From contig JWKQ01000001.1 of the NCBI GenBank assembly GCA_000806115.1, forward strand, positions 368,915 through 432,914: a stretch of DNA of 64,000 bases, in the 5' to 3' direction. The position numbers and the translations under genes are program-made. Position 1 is the stretch's first letter. Every line of letters starts with the position of its first letter. Origin of the DNA: an archaeon GW2011_AR5 (GTDB lineage: Archaea > Aenigmatarchaeota > Aenigmatarchaeia > GW2011-AR5). Shown here in pieces: positions 19,118 to 64,000 of the stretch. A model generated the notes under the pieces. It worked only from the letters and a program-made list of their open reading frames with translations, had not been told where the DNA came from and searched no databases.

Positions 19118-22027
19118 TCAACCTTTCACGTTGCCGACAGGAACGAATTTGCAGACTTTGCTGGATATACCTGCCTTGTGCACGGCGTCTATCACTTCGT
19201 CTATGTCCTTGTAGGCGCTTCCCGCTTCCTCTGCGAGCCCCGCGAAGCTTGTTGTGCGCACGTATATTCCGCGCTTCTCCATGTCGCGCTGAAGGCTGTC
19301 TCCCCTGTAAAGCTGCCTCGCCCTCGTGCGCGACATCGTCCTTCCCGAGCCGTGAGCGGTGCTGCCGAAGGTTTCCTTCATACCCTTTTCCGTTCCCACC
19401 AGCAAATATGAGCCTGTCTCCATCGAGCCGCCTATGATTACCGGCTGCCCTATGTCACGATATATTTTTGGCACTTCCTCGCGCCCGGGACCGAATGCAC
19501 GCGTTGCGCCTTTCCTGTGAACCAGCACCTGCTGCCTTTTCCCGTTGACATCATGCTCCTCAAGCTTCGCCGTGTTGTGTGCCACGTCATAGACGCAGTT
19601 CATCTCCATCGACTCTGCCGACTGCCCCATCACCTTTGAGAAGCACTCCCGTATCCTGTGTAATATAACCTGGCGGTTGGCAAAACTCATGTTGATGCCG
19701 CATTTCATCGCCGTGAAGTAATCCTGGCCCTCTTTGCTCTGGAAAGGCGCGCATGCAAGCTCGCGGTCCAGTATCTTTATTCCGTACTTGGATTCCATAA
19801 CTTCGAGGAAGACGTTGAGATAATCCGTGGCAACCTGGTGCCCGAAGCCGCGGCTCCCGCAGTGGAACATAACCACTACCTGGTTGGGAAAGATTCCCAT
19901 CCGTTTTGCGATTTCCTTATCGACTATGTTCTCAGGCTTCACCACCTGTATCTCAAGATAGTGGTTGCCGCTGCCGAGCGTCCCAATCTGGTCCATGCCG
20001 CGCTCGATTGCCTTTGAGCTGACTTTTGATGCGTCACCTTCCATCTTACCGTTCTCTTCTATCCGCTCGAGGTCCTCTTCCCAGCCGTAACCTTGCTTCA
20101 CAGCCCATTCCGCGCCGCCCACGATAGCCTCGCGGAAGGTATTCTTGTTAAGCTTGACAAACCCCTTGCTGCCCACACCGGCGGGGACGCGCTCGAACAA
20201 CAAATCCACAAGCTGCTTCAGCTTCGGCTTGACGTCCTTGTAGGTAAGATTGGTTGTCAGAAGGCGCATTCCGCAGTTATGAGAAACTATGCAATTCGCT
20301 ATGAAATTATGATGGCGGCTAGGCATTGTGAAATCATAGACATATCCGTCATATTCGATATTTTTAATTTCCGAAACCTCATCTTTGATAAACTCGGAAT
20401 TTGGAATCTCAACCGTTCTACAAAATTCTTGGAATGTGGGGAAACTCCCTGAAATTCTCACGCCTTTATAGGTCTTATATTTTCTTGCTCTTACTCTGCT
20501 CTTCATGTCTGAAATTTCAATTTCATTGCACTCGATCATCTTCTCCAGATTTTTCAGATATTCACGCTTGAAATTCAGATAAGAAAGCGCAAGCATGGAA
20601 AGCCTTCTCCGTTCTGCGCAATATTCATAGCCAATGTTACCCCATAATCTACTCAAATTTTCAGGCTTTGCTGATAATCTGAGTGCAAGCTTGTGGGTTG
20701 GCTCTCCGAATGTATTAATTGCAATCCTTTGCCTGTATATTTTATTGGCAACAACCCCAAATTCCAGAAGGAGATTTGTTATTTCCAGAATGAAGTTCAT
20801 ATTATCCTTTTCAAGACTGTCTATCTTGTTCTGGCTAAAACTAGGCTCAGTGAAGCTCGTCAATTCGCTCTTCCTCTGACATGGCTTATTAAGCTCTGCA
20901 CCAAAGAGCCCGGCAAGATAAAGCCTTTTTATCCACTTTGGAGCTTTTCCAATCCATTTCGGAACAGATGTTTTTGTCCGAGATTTATTGCCTTTTGGAA
21001 CACCAAGAGCATGGAGCAAAACACTCAATGCCTGGGAATTAATATGGTATTGCGTGCTTTTTCCTATTATTTCCTGTTTAGAGCCGGATCCAGTTGTGAT
21101 CGTGCTTGAATAATCCAATGTCCTGATATGTGTTGCCTTGAATCCAAGCTCGAAAATGTCCTCTTTAATTTCTTCAAGATCTTCCTGTTTTCCTATAATT
21201 CTAGTAGACCAAATATCCATGCTTCTTTTTTTGGAAAAGTATGATCCTACCCATCCATCGCCTGTTATGAAACCAACAAGCTTTGCCAATATAGGTAATT
21301 TTGCAGAATTGTATCTCAATGGCAGGAGAGATTTTTCTTTAAGCTCTTTCACTATATTTTCCCTATTGCCTACAATGGATCGAATAGCATTTTCATCTAA
21401 GATTATATCACTAGACGGCTCCTCATATTCTATCCCATTAAATGGATGAATAATGATTTTTTGACCCTCTCTCATTTCGCTTGCTTCTATGAACTCGCTG
21501 CCCGTATACAGAGGATGATCAGAAGAAAGGATGATTTCATGACCGGTTTTTGTAGTTATTTTCAGGACTGGCTTGTCTGATTCCTTTGCCAAAAATATTA
21601 CAGGCTTGTCATGCAGTTTATTGCTATTTTCAGTATCAATATAGCTAACTGTATCTGTGCATTTCTCCATTTCTTTTATTTTTCTGAAATATCCAAAGCG
21701 TGTAAGTATTCTTGTCTCCGGATGCAAGCAGTTGATGTCGAATCCTATTCCGCCGGGAGAAATGACGCCTTTCTCGACGTCCATCGCCGCGACGCCGCCT
21801 ATCGGAAATCCGTACCCGGAGTGCCCGTCAGACATGCAATAAGCATAATTGATGATACCCGGCAGCGTGGCTACATTGGTTATCTGGTCATAAACCTGCA
21901 TGTCCATCTGGGCGACTATTCCCTCGGTGCCTATAATCTTCGCAGGCACGTGCATGCCCGGCTTGTAAGTCTTCGGGATAACCCATTCAGTTTCGCTGAC
22001 TTTCTGCAAAAAGTTTGGTACTGCCAA
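19118..22027 (-). CDS. rtcB: RNA-splicing ligase RtcB, interrupted by an intein
   Basis: Exteins carry the RtcB motifs (GGIGFDIN | CGMRLL, GSGNHY, HCGSRGFGH, HGSGR). 969 aa, against about 480 for an intein-free RtcB. Confidence 0.95.
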   Translation of the reverse strand: MAVPNFLQKVSETEWVIPKTYKPGMHVPAKIIGTEGIVAQMDMQVYDQITNVATLPGIINYAYCMSDGHSGYGFPIGGVAAMDVEKGVISPGGIGFDINCLHPETRILTRFGYFRKIKEMEKCTDTVSYIDTENSNKLHDKPVIFLAKESDKPVLKITTKTGHEIILSSDHPLYTGSEFIEASEMREGQKIIIHPFNGIEYEEPSSDIILDENAIRSIVGNRENIVKELKEKSLLPLRYNSAKLPILAKLVGFITGDGWVGSYFSKKRSMDIWSTRIIGKQEDLEEIKEDIFELGFKATHIRTLDYSSTITTGSGSKQEIIGKSTQYHINSQALSVLLHALGVPKGNKSRTKTSVPKWIGKAPKWIKRLYLAGLFGAELNKPCQRKSELTSFTEPSFSQNKIDSLEKDNMNFILEITNLLLEFGVVANKIYRQRIAINTFGEPTHKLALRLSAKPENLSRLWGNIGYEYCAERRRLSMLALSYLNFKREYLKNLEKMIECNEIEISDMKSRVRARKYKTYKGVRISGSFPTFQEFCRTVEIPNSEFIKDEVSEIKNIEYDGYVYDFTMPSRHHNFIANCIVSHNCGMRLLTTNLTYKDVKPKLKQLVDLLFERVPAGVGSKGFVKLNKNTFREAIVGGAEWAVKQGYGWEEDLERIEENGKMEGDASKVSSKAIERGMDQIGTLGSGNHYLEIQVVKPENIVDKEIAKRMGIFPNQVVVMFHCGSRGFGHQVATDYLNVFLEVMESKYGIKILDRELACAPFQSKEGQDYFTAMKCGINMSFANRQVILHRIRECFSKVMGQSAESMEMNCVYDVAHNTAKLEEHDVNGKRQQVLVHRKGATRAFGPGREEVPKIYRDIGQPVIIGGSMETGSYLLVGTEKGMKETFGSTAHGSGRTMSRTRARQLYRGDSLQRDMEKRGIYVRTTSFAGLAEEAGSAYKDIDEVIDAVHKAGISSKVCKFVPVGNVKG
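20276..21730 (-). mobile_element. intein (485 aa) with LAGLIDADG homing-endonuclease domain
   Basis: Starts with Cys100 (CLHPETRIL) right after FDIN. Ends ...IVSHN, followed by the +1 Cys of CGMRLL. LAGLIDADG-type motifs LVGFITGDGW and YLAGLFGAEL. Confidence 0.85.
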
Positions 22028-63662: not shown

Positions 63663-63747
63663 GACTTAATTTGGCTCCACTCAGTATATATTATTTTGGT
63701 AAAATTTTTAGGAAAGGCGGAAAGAAAATCCGGGCATTGGACATAAC

Positions 63748-63754
63748 TTTTTAA
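63748..63754 (+). promoter_or_regulatory. TATA-box-like element upstream of the interrupted tRNA
   Basis: TTTTTAA is centred about 30 nt upstream of 63781. Confidence 0.35.
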
Positions 63755-63780
63755 GTTGCCGCGAGAAAACACTTCAGGCT

Positions 63781-63951
63781 GCCAACGTAGCTCAATCTGG
63801 CAGAGCATCTCACAGCCCTTTTCTCGCTTCGCTCCAAAAGCGCTGGCGGAAAAGAACGAGAAATTGTATCTCATCTTTAGAGACGCGCCTTCGGCGCCGT
63901 CAGTGATAGAAAGAGATGAGAAGGTTGGGGGTTCGATTCCTCCCGTTGGCT
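63781..63951 (+). tRNA. tRNA gene interrupted by about 97 nt in the anticodon region (anticodon not assignable by eye)
   Basis: Acceptor gccaacg/cgttggc. D-arm gctc-aatctggca-gagc. Anticodon-stem strands tctca (63808) / tgaga (63917). Variable loop aggtt. T-arm ggggg-ttcgatt-cctcc. 171 nt in total. Confidence 0.6.
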
Positions 63952-64000
63952 TTCATTTGCAGTAATCACTGTTCTTGCCGGACACTCCGTCAGTTGCCGG

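Follow-up and report, generated by a model that had tools for sequence, protein, structure and literature searches.

The plus-strand tRNA locus at 63781-63951 raises the question of whether a gene whose anticodon arm is interrupted by a long insertion can still yield a tRNA, and which codon that tRNA would read. We studied it within a 64,000-nucleotide stretch of DNA (the window, C1:368915-432914) taken from an assembly of 858 kb in 3 contigs that is 87.6% complete. The acceptor stem, D-arm, variable loop and T-arm are all canonical, with acceptor strands GCCAACG (63781-87) and CGTTGGC (63944-50), a discriminator T at 63951, a GCTC/GAGC D-arm and a T-arm of the form GGGGG-TTCGATT-CCTCC. The anticodon-stem strands TCTCA (63808-12) and TGAGA (63917-21) are separated by a gap of 104 nt. 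The initial annotation of this DNA had described these arms and this gap, and in addition two copies of ATCTCA (63807-12 and 63868-73, with 55 nt between them), a 10-bp helix of TCTCATCTTT (63869-78) with AGAGATGAGA (63912-21), a pairing of TTTCTCG (63820-26) with CGAGAAA (63857-63) and a hairpin at 63882-63901; we found each of these features in place. It left the anticodon unnamed and considered two splicing events, an unusual loop or an inactivated gene. We hold, with a probability of roughly 88%, that the sequence represents a functional gene for tRNA-Thr(UGU) with two introns removed by protein splicing, the first of which would be a recently gained copy of a structured element.

The gene escapes standard searches. 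Default ARAGORN called no tRNA anywhere in the 64-kb window, and Rfam at its gathering score returned a neighboring tRNA-Trp only, its tRNA model missing the gene at 63781-63951. Genome-wide, a search that disallowed introns recovered only 12 tRNA genes from the whole assembly, which holds about 35 in all, with interrupted anticodon arms in about 15. A further tRNA-like gene outside the window (C2:185435-185610, minus strand, in the same genome, G000) has an acceptor stem GGGAAUG/CAUUCCC with A73 and carries about 150 nt of extra sequence between its D-arm and T-arm; it adjoins a tRNA-Asn(GUU) with a D-loop intron.

Once we had deleted 63814-63863, ARAGORN recognized 63869-63915 as a canonical intron of 47 nt within a tRNA-Thr(TGT), and deletion of both introns in silico left a clean 74-nt cloverleaf with the loop CUUGUAA (Table 1). 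This loop has 7 nt, U33, the anticodon UGU and a purine, A37. It is pieced together from C63813, which abuts the 5' stem strand, UUGUA (63864-68), and A63916, which abuts the 3' strand. The intron boundaries are unique, in that shifting either intron alters the product, and exon 3 encodes no CCA. The anticodon can be named after all, with the micro-exon UUGUA supplying the predicted UGU, and the two splicing events envisaged in the initial annotation agree both with this 74-nt product and with a relative that lacks exactly intron 1 (see below). An upstream A/T-rich box is a putative archaeal promoter, its spacing being suited to an archaeal TATA box plus a short leader.

Table 1. Features of the interrupted tRNA-Thr(UGU) locus, in window coordinates.
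Feature	Positions	Strand	Basis or remark
TATA-like box, A/T-rich, CTTTTTAAG	63747..63755	+	Sequence reading; ~30 nt upstream of mature 5' end
Exon 1, tRNA positions 1-32 (acceptor 5' strand, D-arm, A26, UCUCA, C32)	63781..63813	+	Identical to G008 orthologue
Conserved element core, hairpin CAGC-C-CUUUU...AAAAG-C-GCUG followed by purine tail GCGGAAAA	63812..63853	+	Model R1, 60.4 bits; overlaps exon bases A31 and C32
Intron 1 5' bulge, A C / A	63812..63814	+	MFE fold and geometry rule; predicted cut after C63813
Intron 1, 50 nt, non-canonical position 32/33	63814..63863	+	ARAGORN after removal; G008 lacks exactly these bases; MFE hBHBh' motif
Intron 1 3' adapter GAACGAGAAA, site-specific	63854..63863	+	GAGA 63858-61 pairs with exon UCUC 63808-11 in a 4-bp central helix
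Intron 1 3' bulge, A A / U	63862..63864	+	MFE fold; predicted cut after A63863
Micro-exon UUGUA, positions 33-37 (U33, UGU, A37)	63864..63868	+	ARAGORN model, orthologues
Intron 2, 47 nt, canonical position 37/38	63869..63915	+	ARAGORN once intron 1 is removed; homologous to G008 intron
Mimic of anticodon-stem 5' strand at start of intron 2	63869..63878	+	10 bp with 63912-63921; forms second ATCTCA together with A37
Intron 2 internal hairpin, best drawn GAC-GCGCC-UUC-GGCGC-c-GUC	63882..63901	+	Sequence and fold; G008 keeps a GAGACG...CGUC frame with a different top
Exon 3, positions 38-73 (A38, UGAGA, variable loop AGGUU, T-arm, acceptor 3' strand, U73)	63916..63951	+	Sequence and ARAGORN

The body of the tRNA agrees with a threonine identity. 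G1-C72, C2-G71 and U73, which we take to be the identity set of ThrRS, are as in the intron-less tRNA-Thr(CGU) of the same genome and in the intron-less Thr(UGU) genes of two relatives (G004 and G005). A U73 discriminator is found in three genes only, namely the present one, Cys(GCA) and Thr(CGU). Among the codons of 286 long ORFs, ACA has a frequency of 18.3 per 1000. Across the whole assembly, we found no further T-arm preceded by a contiguous anticodon arm that has UGU in its loop, and a BLAST search of it with the mature Thr(UGU) sequence returned no paralogue; the locus is thus the only gene found for a threonine tRNA reading ACA in a genome that is 87.6% complete, where the missing part may contain a second Thr(UGU) copy. 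The inventory of isoacceptors suggested in the initial annotation speaks for a needed gene as far as the UGU arms of this assembly go, and is to be read with some 15 of about 35 tRNA genes having interrupted anticodon arms. A tRNA-Thr(GGU) with intact T-arm and acceptor was not found genome-wide either; that gene either is split in the T-arm or acceptor or belongs to the 12% that the assembly lacks.

We searched 60 related genomes and extracted their Thr(UGU) genes. In G008, a member of the same genus, the exons are identical at 74/74 positions and the gene reads CAC|UUGUA, without exactly the 50 nt of intron 1. Its 37/38 intron is homologous to intron 2, yet only 34/51 positions are identical, which argues that the exons are under purifying selection. 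Other relatives contain no intron at all (G004, G005), a D-loop intron only (G006, G022), a 37/38 intron only (G057, G020), or a 37/38 intron combined with one in the D-loop (G008, G037) or the D-arm (G035). Introns at 30/31 and 37/38 leave a 7-nt micro-exon, ACUUGUA, in G050, G051, G043 and G059, and G039 matches our gene in having introns at 32/33 and 37/38. The sequence (C)UUGUA is kept in every Thr(UGU) orthologue with an interrupted loop. The upstream gene is shared with G005 and G006 and the downstream gene with G008, and these common neighbors support orthology at one and the same locus. Across these orthologues, the exons are conserved, and introns are gained and lost.

Intron 1 contains a structured core that recurs in other genomes. 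Positions 63812-63854 (43 nt) are 100% identical to a sequence in G053, which belongs to a different family, and 63813-63854 (42 nt) to a tRNA of G004. The G053 copy is the canonical 37/38 intron of tRNA-Ala(GGC); the identity spans 41 nt of intron 1, and its adapter is different, CCGAAA, pairing with UUGG in its own exon. A covariance model of the core (R1) detected copies in 50/69 genomes of the order, up to 37 per genome, and intron 1 at 60.4 bits is among the three best copies found. The copies reside in introns of tRNA genes (position 37/38, D-loop and T-loop) and of rRNA genes, and at some sites after genes or between them, in at least 26 genera; deletion enumeration and ARAGORN with introns proved too permissive for assigning these contexts, and only cases also picked by the rule for bulge-helix-bulge (BHB) motifs were used. 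Six copies are located in a single 16S rRNA gene and two in a 23S rRNA gene of G044. That rRNA operon (L074, G044:C4:146000-161000) is swollen by introns, with a 16S gene of 2152 nt compared to a 1478-nt model and a 23S gene of 3676 nt compared to 2987, and it has further copies in the spacer and in neighboring tRNAs. In G000, intron 1 is the one strong copy (60.4 bits), followed by copies of 27.5 and 23.9 bits. The weak copies (24-28 bits) lie at C1:330109-330150 and C2:28455-28517, the first starting directly at a gene's stop codon. The element is nearly absent from G000 and abundant (12-37 copies) in 7/9 genomes of the same genus.

The hairpin of the core is paired in 99.2% of cells across 41 distinct copies (alignment A2), with 29 double-changed cells, a level reached by 0/500 shuffles in an alignment that was itself fitted to the hairpin and consists of related copies. 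RNAfold favors a helix between the U-tract and the tail in this copy; we rejected it, since it lacks covariation and is 94.2% paired versus 94.0% in shuffled alignments. The tail GCGGAAAA instead covaries with the hairpin in a mirror register (108 distinct copies, alignment A3), and the mutual information is specific to those positions. Pair 4:32 is G-C together with a tail G35 in 97 copies and A-U together with A in 6 (p=2.5e-10 in a Fisher test that ignores the kinship of the copies), and pair 11:25 is U-A with A42 in 74 copies and C-G with G in 14 (p=1e-7, likewise ignoring kinship). This is the pattern that G.G-C and A.A-U base triples would give, read from an alignment fitted to the hairpin. 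Rfam 15 contains no family matching the element, an E-value scan of 63700-64000 gave matches at chance level only, and our literature search found no description of the motif, just unrelated primer sequences. The core is thus a candidate for a new RNA structural family.

The same core is found in different tRNA species and at different positions, and its presence differs between close relatives, as in proliferating introns. The orthologue in G006 (L015, G006:C12) has a D-loop intron made of one full copy of the element plus a second tail motif, and the G008 orthologue (L002, G008:C40) has one copy in its D-loop. With copies in the D-loop there and at 32/33 here, the same gene would have been struck by the same element at different sites. 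We tentatively entertain the possibility that intron 1 is a recent, perhaps horizontal, copy of a mobile intron cassette, in which a hairpin clasped by its tail through base triples spreads in tRNA and rRNA genes throughout Aenigmatarchaeota and takes on an adapter suited to each site. If so, the gene catches intron gain in the act, with one strong copy in this genome and a sister species that has identical exons and the cassette elsewhere.

The initial annotation had taken the two ATCTCA copies as the signature of an inserted 55-nt unit. The real unit has 50 nt (63814-63863), and the comparison of the empty site of G008, CAC|TTGTATCTGA, with the filled site, CAC[50 nt]TTGTATCTCA, reveals no duplicated base at its boundaries. 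The second ATCTCA consists of A37 and the first five bases of intron 2. In G008, where intron 1 is absent, ATCTGA is found at this site, so that the second copy is part of intron 2 and was there before the insertion. A target-site duplication by a transposon or MITE was thus rejected, the boundaries having no direct repeat and the second copy being older than the insertion. Removal of the 61-nt unit that the repeat would define leaves UCUCA-UCUUUAG..., without an acceptable loop; the best remaining option, Lys(UUU) with C33, clashes with the acceptor and discriminator, and Lys genes are present elsewhere. The pairing of TTTCTCG with CGAGAAA is in part a side effect, because UCUC occurs both in the exon (positions 27-30), where the adapter's GAGA has to pair with it, and in the core.

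The repeat reflects a property of the canonical intron, which opens with a copy of the 5' strand of the anticodon stem in 8/10 of the Thr(UGU) genes that we compared, a deviating first base setting G050 and G043 apart. The copy follows the stem, being UCUCA here, UCUGA in most genes and UUUGA in G057 and G037, with the exception of G008, where the copy is UCUGA and the stem UCUCA. In 6/10 genes, a helix of 9-11 bp joins it to positions 43 to 38 and to the final intron bases. Such a copy could hold the 3' strand of the stem while the intron 1 motif borrows positions 27-30, or it could be a relic of how the intron originated.

We weighed two readings in which the locus is not a two-intron Thr gene. 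One is a single long intron of about 94-104 nt with an unusual loop or another identity. ARAGORN with introns indeed reports a tRNA-Ser(AGA) with a 94-nt intron; this solution is forced, as the stem consumes A26 and leaves no position 26, there is no long variable arm, and Ser misfits the U73, G1-C72 and C2-G71 shared with Thr genes. UUGUA would moreover be conserved inside the supposed intron in all orthologues, and no single deletion, as checked by hand, yields a 7-nt loop with U33. The initial annotation was right that a single junction cannot produce such a loop, and the intron-aware predictor it proposed gives a sound answer, Thr(TGT), only once 63814-63863 has been removed. We find a single intron hardly credible. 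The other reading is a pseudogene, inactivated by a small mobile element that inserted into the anticodon arm with ATCTCA as target-site duplication. The repeat itself, the membership of the inserted sequence in a dispersed family and the failure of standard finders could be taken this way. The true insertion is the 50-nt unit without flanking repeat, however, and the second copy is ATCTGA in the insertion-free G008 and a stem copy in orthologues across several families. The exons have remained 100% identical to those of G008 although intron 2 has diverged, the boundaries of the insertion coincide exactly with a BHB motif, and the assembly yielded no other source of UGU for ACA, a common codon. 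Inactivation is very unlikely on these grounds, and we retain the functional two-intron gene.

We compared the intron boundaries with archaeal splicing motifs. For an intron of n bases inserted after exon position p, BHB geometry has exon bases p-5 to p-2 pair with intron bases n-5 to n-2, flanked by the bulges (p-1, p | i1) and (n-1, n | p+1), in agreement with the anticodon-intron pair between position 32 and the third base from the intron end. We verified this rule on at least 10 copies of the intron family. The minimum free energy fold of 63803-63870 has the arrangement h(3 bp)-bulge(3)-H(4 bp)-bulge(3)-h', a textbook BHB for intron 1, where h is GCA/UGU, H is the UCUC/GAGA helix of Table 1 and h' begins with G63815-C63857. 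Forcing this motif in the precursor yields -39.7 kcal/mol compared to -40.5 unconstrained, a difference of 0.8, and the remainder folds into the mimic helix of intron 2. Two D-stem bases are taken up by the outer helix, which shrinks to 1 bp once the D-arm is folded. In intron 2, the anticodon stem of 5 bp is followed by a 3-nt 3' bulge, AGA (63914-16), and by a central helix in which C32-U33-U34 makes 3 pairs with AAG, in addition to a G.A mismatch. All orthologues compared (10/10) have the C32-G(n-2) pair. A forced splice-competent fold has the 5' site in a larger loop and lies 4.9 kcal/mol above the optimum of the intermediate, and the 3' splice site of intron 2 is hidden within the 10-bp mimic helix. 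The search for BHB motifs called for in the initial annotation hence recovers a full hBHBh' motif for intron 1, and what folding predicts for intron 2 is a relaxed, hBH-like one.

The genome encodes both enzymes that such splicing would require. EndA is a 224-aa ORF (C2:183233-183511) of the single-unit type with an N-terminal and a catalytic domain (PF01974 and PF02778), and its closest relatives are all MAGs named Candidatus Aenigmatarchaeota. Single-unit (alpha4-type) EndA has classically been held to require strict motifs. A loop-bearing alpha4-type EndA in DPANN lineages goes along with increased disruption of tRNA genes (PMC5829648). RtcB is encoded on the minus strand at C1:388035-390800 (window 19121-21886). 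It is one open frame of 971 aa that matches Pfam in two pieces, with about 1.4 kb between profile positions 1-50 and 49-426, and the insertion looks intein-sized.

These elements suggest the following pathway. GAGA, close to where intron 1 ends, would base-pair with UCUC (exon bases 27-30) and generate the 4-bp helix and its two 3-nt bulges, while the start of intron 2 would engage the anticodon stem's 3' strand, which is then free. EndA would cut both bulges and RtcB would join the ends. The real anticodon stem could then form and C32-U33-U34 pair with an AAG located shortly before intron 2 ends; a second round of cutting and joining would produce the loop CUUGUAA. Intron 1 is probably removed first, since C32 adjoins U33 only after its removal, and since a simultaneous cut at the four sites would set a 5-nt exon loose, which points to an ordered reaction. 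The two introns might also be spliced in the reverse order or independently, or intron 2 might be cut in the mimic fold by an enzyme of relaxed specificity. M. kandleri pre-tRNA-Glu is reported to lose its canonical intron earlier than its non-canonical one (PMC5829648), and the conserved mimic helix presumably matters in the precursor. The central helix of intron 2, however, needs C32 beside U33, which holds only without intron 1, the mimic fold places the 3' splice site inside a continuous 10-bp helix, and simultaneous cutting again would liberate the 5-nt exon. We thus consider these variants unlikely and favor removal of intron 1 before intron 2. The 5-nt exon and the stem copy together predict an ordered splicing pathway in which RNA structures are switched.

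For genome annotation, a gene of this kind is invisible to default tRNA finders, and annotation of such archaea would wrongly declare ACA undecodable; finders would have to recognize micro-exons of 5-7 nt between two introns of the anticodon arm. Relatives with zero, one or two introns in one syntenic gene, on the other hand, offer a natural series on archaeal intron gain.

We compared our gene to other archaeal tRNA genes with introns. Multi-intron tRNA genes and near-identical introns across different tRNAs are established in Thermoproteales, according to PMC4033280 and PMC4090602. As reviewed there, the genes of Thermoproteales and other archaea (Sugahara et al. 2008) likewise combine a canonical 37/38 intron with a non-canonical one, have BHB or relaxed motifs at the boundaries, are spliced by EndA and RtcB and are missed by standard finders. 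Here, the host is an uncultured DPANN archaeon (Aenigmatarchaeota) with a single-unit EndA rather than an (alpha-beta)2 enzyme, and just 5 nt separate the two introns, both of which lie within the anticodon loop. PMC4090602 exemplifies non-canonical positions in a list that ends in 'etc.'; 32/33 is absent from it. The transposed tRNA introns of Thermoproteales (Fujishima et al. 2010, as summarized in PMC4033280 and PMC4090602) similarly differ in gain and loss between close relatives. In contrast to them, the shared part is here a structured core, a hairpin whose purine tail covaries with it in mirror register, the 3' adapter is specific to the site of each copy, and the element also occurs in rRNA introns and at some intergenic sites, in at least 26 genera of the order. 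In ARMAN-2 (Ca. Micrarchaeum; PMC3488258, PMC5829648), we again find a DPANN host, heavily disrupted tRNA genes and relaxed motifs; its epsilon2 EndA has a three-unit architecture, whereas the enzyme here has one N-terminal and one catalytic domain. As in the eukaryotic and archaeal A-I pair, position 32 pairs with the base three nt before the 3' splice site in 10/10 orthologues. Our intron in addition opens with a copy of the anticodon-stem 5' strand that is able to displace the real stem, a feature of canonical introns for which our literature search found no description. The gene at 63781-63951 is a further case of a multi-intron tRNA gene, in a DPANN host, and the kind itself is already known. 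What is unusual is the spacing of the two introns, 5 nt apart in the anticodon loop, the conserved stem copy, and an intron 1 built from a structured core and a site-specific adapter.
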